Of a stretch of 64,000 bases of DNA, positions 7,872-45,788 are shown piece by piece. The stretch is from assembly GCA_964601615.1 (NCBI GenBank), contig CAZRNZ010000002.1, positions 73,339 to 137,338 on the forward strand, given 5' to 3'. The notes beneath the pieces are model-generated. The model had not been told where the DNA came from. It saw only the letters and a program-made list of their open reading frames with translations, and did no database searches. The translations under genes were made by a program, and so were the position numbers. How positions within the stretch are numbered: the first letter of the stretch is position 1; each line of letters begins with the position of its first letter. Source of the DNA: an uncultured Candidatus Saccharibacteria bacterium (GTDB taxonomy: Bacteria > Patescibacteriota > Minisyncoccia > Phycocordibacterales > UBA918).

Positions 7872-8183
7872 AGTATCCACATTATATCGCGATTGTTGTG
7901 GATTGTCGTATATTATTTTTTTCTTTCTTCTTTTCTCTTTATTATTAGGGGTGTTGATTGCTGGATAAGTCAAAAATACTTTTGTAAATAAGGATATTTT
8001 TCATGTTTAATATCCACAGGTGTAACTTAGTAATGTTGGATATAACTGTTGGTAACTGTCTTTTCTGGATAAGGTGGAATATATACACCTTTTTACCCAC
8101 AATTAATATGAGTCATAAACAGCAAAAAATCACTATTTATTCACATGTTATTCACAAGGATTGCACAGATTATTTATTAATTA
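7872..8183. other. Candidate oriC between dnaA and dnaN, with DnaA-box-like 9-mers and an AT-rich unwinding region
   Basis: TTATNCACA-like boxes at about 8009 (atatccaca), 8094 (ttacccaca), 8146 and 8158 (ttattcaca). AT-rich run at 7890-7960. Confidence 0.55.
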
Positions 8184-9726: not shown

Positions 9727-9746
9727 TGTGGATAAGTTGGGGATAA
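9727..9746. promoter_or_regulatory. Tandem DnaA boxes in the dnaA/rpmH divergent intergenic region
   Basis: tgtggataa (perfect TTATCCACA on the minus strand) followed by tggggataa (one mismatch). Confidence 0.55.
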
Positions 9747-36119: not shown

Positions 36120-36695
36120 ATAATGTCTTATATAAAAGACAGCTTATCCACAGTTATTCACATTGATGTCCTTTACATAATTTGTAAAGGACATAGAATA
36201 TATTCAGGCCCAGAGAGGGCAGGCATCGCAAGATCCTAAAGAGTTCATTCCACAAGGTTAGAAACCTCCAAAATTCTAACAACGTTCATAACACATTCCC
36301 ACCTAAAGAGTATGTAAAAAATAAAACATTTAAGTACTCAAGTTAAAGAATTCATGATCGAGCTTGTGAGCCGCAAAGAGGGCCTAAGACATTGGTCCCT
36401 CCTTCCGGCTCGCTTGCTTGAAAAAAGTAAAAGTGAATTCTTAGGAATCTACTAAAGATTCCACGCACAGGAGAGAAGTTTATTAGGTACAAAAGTAAGA
36501 GTCGTTAGGTAAATTAGGATCACTCAGTCTTTAGACATAGAGTTCCATCTGAGGCATTTACACCTCGTATAAAAATCCTAAAGGGACTCGAAATAAGTAC
36601 ATTCTGTATGTCGTGAGACATATATCAAGGCCTGGAGAGGTTGGTAGACAAGTTTATTGTCTTCCTACCCCTCCAGGCCTTTTTTATTTATAAAC
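36120..36695 (+). ncRNA. ORF-free, structure-rich region ending in a plus-strand terminator; candidate long ncRNA, family unassigned
   Basis: No ORF of 60 aa or more in any frame over 36116-37015. Perfect hairpin at 36157-36185, a long nested helix at 36366-36424, and a terminator ggcctggagagg...cctctccaggcc plus TTTTTTATTT at 36634-36695. Confidence 0.35.
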
Positions 36696-39043: not shown

Positions 39044-39116
39044 GCGCCTGTGGTGAAATGGATATCACAACTGACTTCGGATCAGTCGTTCTGGGTTCGA
39101 GTCCTGGCAGGCGCAC
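39044..39116 (+). tRNA. tRNA-Arg (anticodon UCG)
   Basis: Manual cloverleaf: acceptor GCGCCTG/CAGGCGC, D-stem GTGA/TCAC, anticodon stem ACTGA/TCAGT with loop CTTCGGA, T-loop TTCGAGT. CCA is not encoded. Confidence 0.8.
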
Positions 39117-39124
39117 TGATACAT

Positions 39125-39148
39125 AAAACCTGCCCTGCGGCAGGTTTT
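39125..39148 (+). terminator. Terminator after tRNA-Arg
   Basis: aaaacctgccctgcggcaggtttt. Confidence 0.65.
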
Positions 39149-39157
39149 ATGATAAGT

Positions 39158-39260
39158 GCGAGGCGAAGCGTTGTATTTTTATCTTTTCATAGAGAAAAAT
39201 ACCGCGAGCCGGGGTCGAGAGTGCTTAGTAAAATAAGAGCGTAGCGAATATATTTTACTT
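39158..39260 (+). repeat. tRNA-linked repeat, copy A
   Basis: The 55-nt core GGCGAAGCGTTGTATTTTTATCTTTTCATAGAGAAAAATACCGCGAGCCGGGG matches 45599-45648 with about 4 mismatches and contains an internal hairpin. Confidence 0.7.
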
Positions 39261-39431
39261 AGCAACTCGTGACCACTTGTTATATTTAACTACAAAGTTC
39301 TACCTTGTAATTAGGTAACCACATAGATACTACTGTAAACAAAAAAGCCCTGCTGTGGTGGAACACAACAGGGCTAGGCCAAGAGGCCTTTAATCAGGCT
39401 TGGAACAACCTGATCGATGCGACTGGATCAG

Positions 39432-40141: not shown

Positions 40142-40807
40142 ATGATTCGAAATGAAGAAAAGTACCAAAAAGCAACATATTTTCGTAAGCGTGGTTTTTC
40201 TTATACAGAAATAGCTAAATTGGTGGGTGTTTCCCGTGGAACATTAAGTAATTGGTTTGCTAAAAAAAGCTTTTCTAAAAAGGTTAAAGTTGATAATGAA
40301 ATAAAGACAAGAAAAGAAAATGTTAAAAGAATCTCACTTTTAAATAAGGCCCGTCAAACAGAAAAAAATAAAAAGCATAAAGAAGTTCTTAAATCAGCCA
40401 ATACTGAGTATAAAAATTATCGCCATCTTCCCCACTTTATGGCGGGAATAGCCCTATATGTGGCCGTGGGTGATTTAGGTAACAATAACAATATTAGATT
40501 ATCTGATTCTAGAATAGATATTCATAAGATCTTTATAAGGTTTTTAGTAGATTTTCTTGGGATGGATAAAAAAGATATCAAATGTTGGTTAGCAATTGAT
40601 TCTAAAGAAAAGGAATCTAAGGAAGTTGCTGTTTGGTCTAAGTTATTAAAGATATCTTCTGAAAATTTCTATAAAAGTCAGGTCATAAGTAATATTAATC
40701 AATCAACATTGCGAAAAACCATAGGAAATACTATAATCGTAAACGCTACTTTGAAGCAGAAGCTCAATAGATGGGTAGAGTTGGCCTCAAAAGAGTTAGT
40801 TAAATAA
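40142..40807 (+). CDS. Lys-rich protein with an N-terminal helix-turn-helix
   Basis: RKRGFSYTEIAKLVGVSRGTLSNWF HTH at residues 15-40. The rest has no recognisable domain. The stop abuts tRNA-Gly(GCC). Confidence 0.5.
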   Translation: MIRNEEKYQKATYFRKRGFSYTEIAKLVGVSRGTLSNWFAKKSFSKKVKVDNEIKTRKENVKRISLLNKARQTEKNKKHKEVLKSANTEYKNYRHLPHFMAGIALYVAVGDLGNNNNIRLSDSRIDIHKIFIRFLVDFLGMDKKDIKCWLAIDSKEKESKEVAVWSKLLKISSENFYKSQVISNINQSTLRKTIGNTIIVNATLKQKLNRWVELASKELVK

Positions 40808-40809
40808 AA

Positions 40810-40880
40810 GCGGCCATGGTTAAGTGGTATAATGAGTCCTTGCCAAGGATTAGTGGAGAGTTCGATTCTCTCTGGCCGCA
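40810..40880 (+). tRNA. tRNA-Gly (anticodon GCC)
   Basis: Acceptor GCGGCCA/TGGCCGC, anticodon stem AGTCC/GGATT with loop TTGCCAA, T-arm GAGAG-TTCGATT-CTCTC. Confidence 0.8.
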
Positions 40881-40924
40881 CATATGAAAAACCCCCTTAT
40901 AGGGGGTTTTTCATATGTGCGGCC
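40874..40924. repeat. 23-bp perfect inverted repeat (hairpin) whose 5-prime arm overlaps the last 7 nt of tRNA-Gly(GCC)
   Basis: ggccgcacatatgaaaaaccccc ttat gggggtttttcatatgtgcggcc. The arms contain the CATATGAAA(AA)C half of the 14-bp palindrome family. Confidence 0.8.
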
Positions 40925-40960
40925 AGAGGAAGATACTTCCTGTCTCTCCGTAAAAAATCA

Positions 40961-41050
40961 AAAAGCGGAGTGTTGAACTTTTGCCTTATAAGCAAAAGTT
41001 CCGCGGTTTTGGGCAGCGGGTACTTTTGAGCAAAGCGAATTAGGAACTTT
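40961..41050 (+). repeat. tRNA-linked repeat, copy B (rearranged or degenerate)
   Basis: Shares aaagcggag(t/c)gttg, ccgcggttttgggcagcgggtac (like cgcggttttcccgtgctcgcac) and gagcaaagcgaattaggaactt with copy C. Confidence 0.55.
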
Positions 41051-41096
41051 TGTTGCTTCTCTCTAACATGTCTGCCAACACTTCCTTTTCCCTAGT

Positions 41097-41823
41097 GTTT
41101 CATATGAAACAAGTTATCCACAAAGTTAAATGTTCTGTCCTAGATTTTGAGACTGTGTATAACTAAGGGGACAAGTGGATTAAGGACTTTCTGTTTTGTT
41201 CTTAATATTTGTAAATATGGCTATAAATAAGGGTCTTTTAAGACTTTTATGCCCTATACAGTAATCTTATACGTTTCACGTGAAACATCTAGATATATGT
41301 TTCATATGAAACGTTACAAATATAATGCACTTGAGAGTGAGGTTATAATCAGATTAGTGACCAATAAAAAGAATAATAAAATAATGGGTAATTTAGGTGA
41401 AGATATTGCCGAAAAATACCTTAGAAATAAGGGTTTTATTATTTTAGAAAGAAACTATTTAAGAAAATGGGGAGAAATAGATATTGTTACACGTGGAACC
41501 GGACTTGAATGGAAAAATTCTGATGTTTCATATGAAACATCAGAAAAAGTACATTTTGTGGAAGTTAAGAGTGTTTCATATGAAACAAAAGAGGAATTAG
41601 CTTGGGCTGTTACACATGAAACATGGCGACCAGAAGAAATGGTTCATTTTCATAAAATGAAACAAATAAGAAAAGTCGTTGAATCTTGGTTGATTGAAAA
41701 TAATTGGGAAGGGGATATTCAGATTGACGTCATTGCAGTCAGGATCGTTTCACGTGAAAAGTATGCAACAGTAAAATATATACCAAACATAATCTTAGAT
41801 TAATGTGTCACGTGTAACATAAC
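41097..41823. repeat. Array of about 8 copies of a 14-bp palindrome GTTTCA(TA/CG)TGAAAC, irregularly spaced, in and flanking the YraN-like gene
   Basis: Perfect copies at 41097, 41273, 41299, 41525 (extended 20-bp palindrome gatgtttcatatgaaacatc) and 41573. One-mismatch copies at 41609 and 41747. Degenerate copies at about 41480 and 41806. Confidence 0.85.
41384..41803 (+). CDS. yraN: YraN/UPF0102-family predicted endonuclease (restriction-endonuclease-like fold) with repeat-encoded insertions
   Basis: GNLGEDIAEKYLRNKGFIILERNYLRKWGEIDIV ... VHFVEVKS ... IDVIAV matches the YraN core motifs. The ORF-track start at 41249 adds 45 aa that contain two palindromes, so the start was set at the Met preceding the GxxGE motif. 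Confidence 0.6.
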   Translation: MGNLGEDIAEKYLRNKGFIILERNYLRKWGEIDIVTRGTGLEWKNSDVSYETSEKVHFVEVKSVSYETKEELAWAVTHETWRPEEMVHFHKMKQIRKVVESWLIENNWEGDIQIDVIAVRIVSREKYATVKYIPNIILD

Positions 41824-42059: not shown

Positions 42060-42086
42060 AGGAAGTGAGAGTCGTGATATTTGTTT

Positions 42087-42146
42087 TCTCAGAGTTCAAA
42101 CGAAAAAAGGGGAGTTTCCTCACATTTTTTCGTTTGAACTCTGAGA
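42087..42146. promoter_or_regulatory. 22-bp perfect inverted repeat in the divergent tRNA-Pro / sigma-factor promoter region
   Basis: tctcagagttcaaacgaaaaaa [16-nt loop] ttttttcgtttgaactctgaga. Confidence 0.6.
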
Positions 42147-42311
42147 TAGCAAGCTTTGCTTGCAAAATATCAAGACCGAATAACGAAAGGGTGAAAGCTT
42201 GCTTACACCACTGATACCTTTTGATTAACTTCCGCAAATTCATCAACAAACTTGCGACAAAATCATATCACTTTTTCTGAAAAAAGCGAGACTTGAATAA
42301 GATTATGTGCA

Positions 42312-45430: not shown

Positions 45431-45501
45431 GCGGGCATAGTTTAGTGGTAAAACGTCTGCCTTCCAAGCAGAAGATCGGAGTTCGATTCCCCGTGCCCGC
45501 A
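45431..45501 (+). tRNA. tRNA-Gly (anticodon UCC)
   Basis: Acceptor GCGGGCA/TGCCCGC, D-stem GTTT/AAAC, anticodon stem TCTGC/GCAGA with loop CTTCCAA, T-loop TTCGATT. Upstream promoter TTGGAA-18-TAATAT with an extended -10. Confidence 0.8.
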
Positions 45502-45510
45502 CTAGTAAAC

Positions 45511-45540
45511 AAAAAGAACACACTTTTGTGTGTTCTTTTT
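45511..45540 (+). terminator. Terminator after tRNA-Gly(UCC)
   Basis: aaaaagaacacacttttgtgtgttcttttt. Confidence 0.65.
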
Positions 45541-45593
45541 GTACGTGTGTGGGCAACAGTAAGCGCCACTTCGGCGCTTACGTGGGGAATCGA

Positions 45594-45704
45594 AAGGCGG
45601 AGCGTTGTATTTTTCTCTTTTCCTAGAGAAAAATACCGCGAGCCGGGGCAGCAAGTCCTTGTGAACAAAGTGAATTAGGAACTTGCGCGGTTTTCCCGTG
45701 CTCG
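45594..45704 (+). repeat. tRNA-linked repeat, copy C (longest)
   Basis: Matches copy A over the 55-nt core and copy B over the flanking modules. Has an internal 9-bp hairpin tttttctct...agagaaaaa. Confidence 0.7.
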
Positions 45705-45710
45705 CACAAT

Positions 45711-45788
45711 AAAAAACCGACAACTCTTTGAGTTGTCGGTTTTTCTGTATTTATTACTCAAAACAAAAGACCTCTTTTGAGGTCTTTT
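45711..45788. terminator. Two tandem hairpin terminators downstream of hup
   Basis: aaaaaccgacaactctttgagttgtcggttttt and aaaagacctcttttgaggtctttt. Confidence 0.65.

Follow-up and report, generated by a model that had tools for sequence, protein, structure and literature searches.

The window analysed here, a 64 kb stretch of DNA from an uncultured Candidatus Saccharibacteria bacterium (contig CAZRNZ010000002.1), contains a tRNA-Gly(GCC) gene whose 3' end is embedded in a long perfect hairpin, which we call H1. The tRNA gene occupies positions 40810–40880 of the plus strand (61.3 bits with the Rfam tRNA model; ARAGORN sets its end at 40881) and does not encode the CCA. The open reading frame that precedes it on the same strand (40142–40807) ends 2 nucleotides (nt) 5' of the tRNA and codes for a helix-turn-helix (HTH) protein of 221 residues; this gene is the probable co-transcription partner of tRNA-Gly(GCC). 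H1 itself (40870–40928) is real and non-random, and we take it to be the part first noticed of a conserved family of elements that trail tRNA genes.

The inverted-repeat search returns H1 as a perfect hairpin of 28 bp, with arms of 28 nt at 40870–40897 and 40901–40928, which are 100% complementary and separated by a loop of 3 nt (TAT); the energy computed with RNAfold is −54.1 kcal/mol. The initial annotation had described a perfect stem of 23 bp that takes in, and copies in inverted orientation, the last 7 nt of the tRNA. The stem is indeed free of mismatches, and it is longer than claimed, with 4 more bp at the base (CTCT/AGAG) and 1 more at the top (T/A), and 11 nt of the tRNA are copied in inverted orientation. 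The left arm is made up of CTC (3' strand of the T stem), TGGCCGC (3' strand of the acceptor stem), the discriminator A and 17 nt of trailer, while the 3' end of the right arm reads T-GCGGCCA-GAG. The basal 11 bp are therefore made of the last 11 nt of the tRNA, CTCTGGCCGCA, facing TGCGGCCAGAG. This tRNA-derived 11-nt word has exactly two occurrences in the 64 kb, one in each arm of H1, and the probability that an 11-nt complement is found by chance at a fixed place is about 4^-11.

The apical part of the hairpin is a terminator core, AAAAACCCCCT-TAT-AGGGGGTTTTT (40887–40911), flanked on both sides by the self-complementary CATATG (40881–40886 and 40912–40917). As the initial annotation had proposed for the stem, it scores as a terminator, and it does so on both strands: the apex is a GC-rich stem with an A-tract and a T-tract, the plus-strand call lies at 40893–40906 with TTTTT, and a mirror site is found on the minus strand. 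About 20 other perfect or near-perfect palindromes in the window have the same design of A-run, GC core and T-run, and the apical 17 bp of H1 are this genome's usual bidirectional intrinsic terminator. Termination alone is not enough to explain H1: on either side, the stem goes on for 17 nt past the T-run, and it takes in 11 nt of the tRNA. The uninterrupted duplex (28 bp in the window, 19–32 bp in relatives) has the length of an RNase III substrate, that is, at least about 20 bp.

The flank of tRNA-Gly(GCC) was compared in relatives, whose loci are numbered with the prefix L. The contigs of 49 homologues of the HTH protein (41–67% identity) were fetched, and a profile scan with one genome per species gave 71 more loci, nearly all of them labelled Patescibacteria (Paceibacteria, Kaiserbacteria, Nomurabacteria and similar). 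In 60 distinct loci the HTH gene is directly followed by tRNA-Gly(GCC), as in the window. A scan of the genome contigs with a 31-nt piece of the tRNA-Gly(GCC) found nothing; relatives differ in the anticodon stem or in the T stem.

In 32 of the 60 distinct syntenic loci, the last 9–11 nt of the tRNA, a trailer arm, the complement of this arm and an inverted copy of the tRNA end (invAcc) form one single hairpin of 19–32 bp. The trailer arms are unrelated in sequence between species, and yet they are paired up to the discriminator. The CATATGAAAAA...TTTTTCATATG form of the window is also present in five relatives (L041, L044, L045, L056 and L069). The invAcc segment tracks the changes of the acceptor stem: the pair is CTAGCTGCA/TGCAGCTAG in L045 and CTACCCGCA/TGCGGGTAG in L069, while the direct copy of the tRNA end located further downstream in L069 (D2, see below) keeps another sequence. 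A match of 10 nt with at most one mismatch in a stretch of 60 nt, for which we estimate a chance probability of about 0.002, is seen in 21 of the 60 loci. Across relatives, about 27 to 53 nt separate the tRNA-derived arms. A third layout also exists, in which the outer stem is made of the last 2–4 nt of the tRNA and the trailer, and encloses both the terminator hairpin and the hairpin H2 described below.

The inverted copy is the start of a modular element. Its parts follow one another in the order invAcc (first part of a leader), a 9-bp hairpin H2, invT (second part of the leader), an interior of 70–150 nt and, often, D2. The apical pairs of H2 vary between loci. InvT is the complement of the T-loop and of the 3' strand of the T stem, for example GGAGAATCGAA or GGGTAATCGAA, and follows the T stem of each genome. 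Interiors are of at least three types with modules in common, and a covarying core of about 100 nt lies at this place. D2 is a direct copy of the last 20 nt of the tRNA (the original, D1, lies at 40861–40880 in the window, and is the sequence that the element mirrors); it has no mismatch over these 20 nt in 11 loci, and 0–3 mismatches in about 20 loci. After D2 comes a further hairpin, frequently with a further leader and unit, which results in tandem arrays. The acceptor part of D2 has been lost in several lineages where invAcc is still perfect, as is the case in the window. In units with a type-B interior (for instance those of L011, L014, L026, L064 and L073), we noticed a covarying hairpin of 4–5 bp with an invariant 7-nt loop, CUGUAAG, just 5' of D2; with a U at position 2 and a purine at position 6, this loop is anticodon-loop-like.

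In the window, the unit that follows tRNA-Gly(GCC) on the plus strand has a perfect invAcc and an intact core. The leader begins with TGCGGCCAGAG (40918–40928), which is reverse-complementary to the final 11 nt of the tRNA and has a homologous segment in 32 loci; it contains GCGGCCA, which is also the 5' acceptor strand of the tRNA. It is followed by a short local version of H2, AGGAAG-ATA-CTTCCT (40927–40941), at the place of the 9-bp covarying hairpin of the relatives, and by a degenerate invT (40952–40962), which reads AAAAAATCAAA against an expected AGAGAATCGAA, that is, 3 mismatches over 11 nt compared to 0–1 in most relatives. The core module (40961–41063; 72.5 bits, E = 2.6e-15 with R1, the covariance model of the core, which was built on alignment A2) consists of helices P1 and P2 with an internal loop of the GGAG/GAG type, hairpin P3 and hairpin P4 with tandem G.A pairs. 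The D2 remnant (41052–41080, GTTGCTTCTCTCT..CTGCCAACA) has 9 mismatches out of 20. In the reading that we favour below, the basal 11 bp of H1 exist because the leader at the start of the element is reverse-complementary to the 3' end of the tRNA itself; as D2 and the part of the leader that mirrors the T-loop are decayed in the window, the pairing with the tRNA tail is the only one left, hence the perfect stem of 28 bp. We also considered that the downstream arm could be the start of a degenerate inverted tRNA on the minus strand (GGAGAG...CTCTGGCCGCA); this was rejected, as the permissive Rfam scan gives no second tRNA-like match, and the relatives have a hairpin and a T-loop complement at this place.

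The core is not specific to tRNA-Gly(GCC). R1 has three matches in the 64 kb, each of them directly 3' of a tRNA and on the strand of this tRNA, so that three of the four tRNAs of the window are followed by a unit; tRNA-Pro has a terminator only. The unit of tRNA-Gly(TCC) (plus strand, 45431–45744, the tRNA being at 45431–45501) gives the highest score, 105.5 bits. It comprises a trailer hairpin, invAcc TGTGGGCAAC (45548–45557), H2 (45558–45582), invT TGGGGAATCGAA (45583–45594), the core (45593–45697), a degenerate D2-like copy (45687–45706) and a final terminator (45712–45744), and both invAcc and invT match their own tRNA. The unit of tRNA-Arg(TCG) (plus strand, 39044–39268, with the tRNA at 39044–39115; 75.7 bits) has a trailer hairpin closed by CGCA/TGCG (39112–39115/39157–39160), directly followed by the core (39158–39268).

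Similar observations hold for the genome loci, where 42 of the 44 matches of R1 have a tRNA (Gly, Arg or Pro) on the same strand 42–354 nt upstream, minus-strand tRNAs included; the two others lie at the edges of their locus. Outside the window, the architecture with a leader is found with Arg-TCG and Pro. A scan of metagenomes with a 15-nt word of the core gave mostly chance matches, and R1 was used to confirm them: the confirmed ones are behind Gly-TCC, Met, Cys, Leu, Ala, Gln, Arg-TCT, Val and Lys. All these units but that of Lys have a leader complementary to the tRNA, and most have the direct copy of its tail; the Lys unit has the layout with a short outer stem, in which the trailer hairpin closes on only the last few nt of the tRNA. 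Outside the window, the core is found behind at least 11 tRNA species beyond Gly-GCC. When all leaders are scored against all tRNA tails, the top scores fall mostly on the cognate diagonal. The element does not behave as a dispersed palindromic repeat (REP, MITE or Correia-like), since the arm sequence occurs only here in the 64 kb, the three copies of the core in the window are all 3' of tRNAs, and 42 of the 44 copies in other genomes have a same-strand tRNA upstream. The initial annotation had left room for a terminator design common to many tRNAs of this genome; analogous arrangements do occur at other tRNAs, but the design is that of a conserved modular element and not of a plain terminator.

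The core looks like an RNA. In its alignment 93% of the cells are paired, double (compensatory) changes are seen in 13 of the 13 modelled pairs, and the covariation score is 0.674, compared to 0.217 for shuffles and less than 0.08 for slid controls. The excess of G.U over A.C pairs (24 vs 4) suggests that the molecule is a folded single strand, with plus polarity and the same orientation as the tRNA. As for the palindrome formed with the tRNA tail, it could be kept at the RNA or at the DNA level.

In the part of the core with hairpins P3 and P4 (window 40961–41063 and 45593–45697, alignment A3), UGAG...CGAA hairpins with tandem G.A pairs recur, together with a CUUAG/CUUAG helix with a U.U mismatch. 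The loop of P3 (..UUCCUAA..) is complementary to an invariant UUAG(G/A)A in P4, which suggests, on the basis of the sequences, that a tertiary contact between loop and helix may link the two hairpins.

Folding predictions depend on where the transcript stops. A transcript that ends in the T-run is predicted to adopt a tRNA-like fold with a closed acceptor stem and a 12-bp trailer hairpin. On the contrary, a transcript that continues to 40930 is predicted to prefer the 28-bp helix, in which the acceptor and T stems are opened: over 40810–40930 the two explicit structures, full helix and cloverleaf, have energies of −57.1 and −47.7 kcal/mol, respectively, and the minimum free energy is −68.9 kcal/mol. 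Because the helix is predicted to outscore the cloverleaf on such a read-through transcript, it would compete with the folding of the acceptor stem in the precursor, in agreement with what the initial annotation had anticipated. With the whole element of the window included in the transcript, the minimum-energy fold pairs the 5' acceptor strand of the tRNA with the D2 remnant. When intact units are folded alone, closing helices of about 11 and 13 bp are predicted between the leader and D2, with H2 as a side branch; a terminal helix similar to an acceptor/T stem is predicted in this way for L017, L073, L014, L026 and the tRNA-Gly(TCC) unit of the window. It cannot form in the tRNA-Gly(GCC) unit of the window because D2 is degenerate there.

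Our tentative proposal, which we hold with slightly less than even confidence, is that H1 is the junction between tRNA-Gly(GCC) and a conserved structured RNA, linked to the tRNA on the same strand and reached by read-through, whose leader has two alternative partners. Most transcripts would stop at the apex of H1 and give a normal pre-tRNA with a short hairpin trailer. The anatomy, its conservation, the match of each leader to its own tRNA, the covariation of the core and the co-orientation with tRNAs are observed; we infer that read-through transcription would produce the tRNA-linked structured RNA, that its leader would switch between the tRNA tail and D2, the two pairings being mutually exclusive, and that nucleases would act on the products. 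Pairing with the tail would form the 28-bp duplex, open the acceptor and T stems and sequester the tail, and this duplex might be a site of double-strand-specific cleavage or decay. Pairing with D2 would form a closing helix like that of an acceptor/T arm and leave the tRNA folded; this helix could allow RNase P and RNase Z to excise the element, in the same way as tRNA-like processing signals.

Several observations weigh against this proposal. The apex of H1 looks like a real terminator, with T-runs of 4–7 nt, so that read-through is an assumption. The element is missing at tRNA-Gly(GCC) in about one third of the relatives, and close relatives can differ in the type of interior (L002 vs L004); this patchy presence and these swaps of interior fit turnover as well as function. 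The counts of core covariation given above come from an alignment that was fitted to the model, and the figures are somewhat inflated. H1 is about 97% Watson–Crick, and a strand asymmetry in its G.U content was looked for and none was found, with 20 G.U pairs in the plus-strand fold and 21 in the minus-strand fold out of about 820 pairs. Where the leader is not perfectly complementary to the tRNA, the changes (13 compatible with G.U, 23 A.C and 42 other) are not enriched in G.U; the complementarity of leader and tRNA could thus be maintained at the DNA level, or just inherited there. Last, where D1 and D2 differ, the leader fits the real tRNA better (9.06 vs 7.62 of 10, and 10.5 vs 8.56 of 11), but this preference for the tRNA tail over D2 is biased by the way in which the leader was located.

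Other explanations were considered. H1 might be a plain strong bidirectional terminator, with a palindrome that grew longer through chance or through a template switch during replication (quasi-palindrome correction), the outer 11 bp having no role. The window does contain many perfect palindromes of 17–21 bp with A-tract, GC stem and T-tract, the self-complementarity of CATATG provides 6 of the extra bp for free, and H1 has no strand bias. The relatives speak strongly against this: 32 of 60 loci, whose trailers are unrelated, have the complement of the tRNA tail, which tracks the changes of the tRNA; the arrangement recurs at other tRNAs; a conserved hairpin, a T-loop complement and a covarying core come after the complement; and the loci are neither assembly artefacts nor near-identical strains, as the adjacent proteins are 41–67% identical. 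The comparative data essentially exclude an accidentally lengthened plain terminator, which we consider extremely improbable. It is hardly more convincing, and in our opinion very unlikely, that H1 is a protein-binding palindrome in which the CATATGAAA half-sites belong to the GTTTCA(T/C)(A/G)TGAAAC operator family and bind a dimeric regulator, for example the HTH protein, the hairpin being incidental. All 10 copies of CATATGAAA in the window (1.26 expected) lie within 40881–41585, 2 of them in the arms of H1 and 8 in four GTTTCATATGAAAC palindromes; 10 sites similar to GTTTCAYRTGAAAC are found in 40229–41818 when 1.33 are expected; the trailer of five relatives also begins with CATATGAAAAA; and the HTH gene is strictly linked to tRNA-Gly(GCC). 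The initial annotation had noted that the arms share half of the nearby palindrome, which is true in so far as CATATGAAA is common to both, but the arms have CATATGAAAAA and not ...AAAC. They lack the TTT half of the motif and do not contain the full 14-nt palindrome of the GTTTCAYRTGAAAC family, and H1 is absent from the 10 sites with at most two mismatches. In most relatives the long hairpin is devoid of any CATATG, the distance between the tRNA-derived arms (about 27–53 nt) varies in a way that is unsuited to a dimeric site, and an operator leaves the tRNA-derived 11 bp and the occurrence of the same design at other tRNAs unexplained. Nor is H1 supported as a copy of the nearby palindrome family, the arrangement being kept in 32 of 60 loci with unrelated trailer sequences.

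A more serious contender, although we think it distinctly less probable than not, is a mobile element acting at the DNA level: the unit would be a small non-autonomous element, or the descendant of one, inserted in a site-specific manner in the region from the T-loop to the 3' end of the tRNA gene. Its own copy would restore the gene and displace the original 3' end, D1 and D2 being attL and attR; thanks to the inverted copy beside the hairpin, a single-stranded form could fold into a mimic of the target duplex, and H1 would be the folded attachment site. The direct repeats that flank the unit go from the T-loop to the discriminator, without mismatch over 20 nt in 11 loci, and in L005, L153 and L161 they take in the trailer hairpin, for a total of about 52–57 bp. 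There are tandem arrays, in which a hairpin and a leader come anew after each direct copy; the presence of the element is patchy, with different types of interior at the same tRNA in close relatives; the leaders and direct copies are tailored to many different tRNAs; H1 is strand-symmetric and nearly pure Watson–Crick, and the mismatch spectrum of the leader is not RNA-like; and variable cargo genes are found just past the element in relatives. An insertion that targeted the tRNA end, as the initial annotation had suspected, may have taken place: in relatives the last 20 nt of the tRNA are repeated directly 140–310 nt downstream, as in integrated elements. A one-off footprint is not supported, considering the 32 of 60 loci with unrelated trailers. 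On the other hand, the units of 120–250 nt have no open reading frame, no integrase, transposase or recombinase domain is recorded among the neighbour genes of the fetched loci, and the cargo genes have no further flanking copies of the tRNA end. Moreover, no copy was found away from a tRNA (the two matches of R1 lacking one are at locus edges) or in scans of IMG/VR with two core motifs, of which one had no match and the other a single chance match without a tRNA. The core also has strong strand-specific covariation and conserved loops, which are more typical of RNA. The repeat of the attL/attR type varies, with 9 mismatches out of 20 in the tRNA-Gly(GCC) unit of the window, a degenerate copy after tRNA-Gly(TCC), and 0–3 out of 20 in about 20 relatives. 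The mobile element and the structured RNA are compatible readings: the unit could be a mobile element with a structured RNA. It may also be, which we judge unlikely, that the units form a new class of tRNA-directed element, namely small non-coding modules, each of which copies the last 20 nt of its tRNA or is targeted by them. Each module would have sense and antisense copies of the tail and would have spread to, or been rebuilt at, many tRNA genes, by means of a hairpin-folded attachment site that mimics the end of the tRNA gene or of a guide-like leader, the structured core being the cis-acting or catalytic part. At the RNA level, a related possibility would be a switch encoded in the trailer, such that the read-through precursor either yields the tRNA or sequesters it.

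Regarding the surroundings of the tRNA, the proteins of the HTH family (P0001–P0048) have about 220 residues, with an N-terminal HTH and an alpha/beta C-terminal domain, and their gene is always directly 5' of tRNA-Gly(GCC). In the 221-residue protein of the window, Pfam recognises HTH_23 at the N-terminus only. Its AlphaFold model is confident (pLDDT 89), and a search of the PDB with this model gave no significant match (best E = 0.025). On these grounds, we rejected the idea that the HTH protein is a recombinase or a homing endonuclease.

On the other side of the element, the spot between it and the UPF0102 gene is a hotspot of gene turnover. Variable genes are found there in L005, L008, L011, L013 and L014: they code for a uracil-DNA glycosylase, a citrate lyase-like protein, DoxX/HxlR, a phosphate acetyltransferase and a mechanosensitive channel. 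In L014 a restriction–modification pair is located on the other side, 5' of the HTH gene. The only other assembly that has an identical HTH protein, L001 (Logan contig SRR16798008_425617), ends at ...ctctggccgcac, which corresponds to the first bases of H1, and the long palindrome probably breaks short-read assemblies at tRNA genes.

The region 40229–41818 of the window, mainly 41097–41818, contains 10 GTTTCA(T/C)(A/G)TGAAAC palindromes, one of which is the 28-bp perfect palindrome at 41518–41545. Several are inside the UPF0102/YraN coding sequence (41384–41803), where they encode repeated VSYET/VSRE peptides, and the same palindromes are found 5' of the UPF0102 gene in L002, L004, L007, L029, L031 and L049. 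The UPF0102 protein, of the YraN-like nuclease family, has 115 residues over a Pfam profile of 80 positions; the approximately 35 extra residues are apparently encoded by palindrome-bearing DNA.

DnaA-box-like TTATCCACA words are more numerous in the window than expected (33 with at most one mismatch vs 18.8) and form intergenic clusters, at 41114–41162, 7873–8156, 9727–9746 and 36144–36162; such 9-mers are also scattered over the whole window. Relatives have a conserved block, GGGGACAA..GGTGTATAGGTGGATAAG.GACA, in the interval from tRNA-Gly to the UPF0102 gene. The sign of the local GC skew changes near 39–40 kb, and the skew follows the orientation of the genes. The region of this block and of the DnaA boxes may be an origin or a promoter motif. 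Last, we note that an inverted repeat of 34 nt, 88% complementary, lies at 42081–42152, just upstream of the minus-strand tRNA-Pro(TGG).

Among the families of Rfam 15, which include tmRNA, SRP RNA, 6S RNA, Y RNA, the glycine riboswitch, group I introns and the classes of self-cleaving ribozymes, only tRNA passes; permissive scans (E ≤ 10) otherwise return matches to generic hairpins (miRNA) or small RNAs, far below the gathering scores, for example RT-14 with 30.2 bits compared to a gathering score of 48.1. The hammerhead ribozyme was also considered, as the CUUAUGAG...CGAAU hairpin resembles the core. The hammerhead consensus includes an essential G5 and an A15.1 pair, and here there is a U in place of the former and the latter is absent, so that this candidate was rejected. 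A search of the literature, whose coverage is incomplete, found no description of comparable elements; a preprint on tRNA group I introns in Patescibacteria concerns position 35/36 and is unrelated to the element. The tRNA-trailing element is thus apparently undescribed.

If the element is an RNA, it would be a widespread family of structured RNAs in Patescibacteria that ride on tRNA transcription units, start as antisense to the tail of the host tRNA and end in a copy of this tail. It would imply a new coupling of tRNA maturation to a second RNA, and offer a set of substrates for RNase P, RNase Z and RNase III, in uncultivated bacteria whose genomes are very small and whose repertoire of RNA-processing enzymes is reduced. 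A DNA element would mean a tRNA-targeting mobile unit of unusually small size, equipped with a folded attachment site. In either case, annotators can use the covariance model, and the long hairpins that break assemblies at tRNA genes are explained.

With respect to known systems, H1 has in its apical 17 bp the A-tract, GC stem and T-tract of bidirectional intrinsic terminators, from which it differs by a stem that reaches 11 bp into the tRNA and by the conserved structure downstream. The element as a whole partly resembles four known systems, without having the full set of features that defines any of them. In plant mitochondrial t-elements and in the mascRNA module of MALAT1, a helix that mimics the acceptor stem/T arm, together with a discriminator, is located at the end of a transcript other than a tRNA and allows RNase P and RNase Z to cut there. 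Intact units are similarly predicted to close with a leader:D2 helix like that of an acceptor/T arm; however, the mimic is here a literal copy of the last 20 nt of the neighbouring tRNA, its 5' strand is antisense to the real tRNA tail, and the T-loop is paired, so that no T-loop is formed. Integrases that target the T-loop sublocation of tRNA genes reportedly duplicate the tRNA 3' end, a description that is said to go back to Williams in 2002, in Nucleic Acids Research. The element also has an identity block from the T-loop to the 3' end of the gene, a direct repeat beyond the insert and possible tandem arrays, but its units are of 120–250 nt and lack an integrase, and they have an extra inverted copy by the hairpin and a covarying module that is shared across tRNAs. 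Folded single strands also serve as attachment sites in the forked hairpin attP(+) of the CTX phage and in the attC sites of integrons. As in these systems, two inverted target-like copies fold into a hairpin that recreates a double-stranded recombination site; unlike them, the target is the 3' end of a tRNA, and no link to Xer or to an integron integrase was found here. Last, RNase III stems flank rRNAs, and 3' external transcribed spacers give RNAs such as 3'ETS-leuZ. By analogy, the element may be described as a long perfect duplex in the precursor of a stable RNA and as a functional RNA in a tRNA trailer, with the difference that the duplex takes in the mature tRNA and that the trailer RNA belongs to a multi-copy family with tRNA-specific ends.

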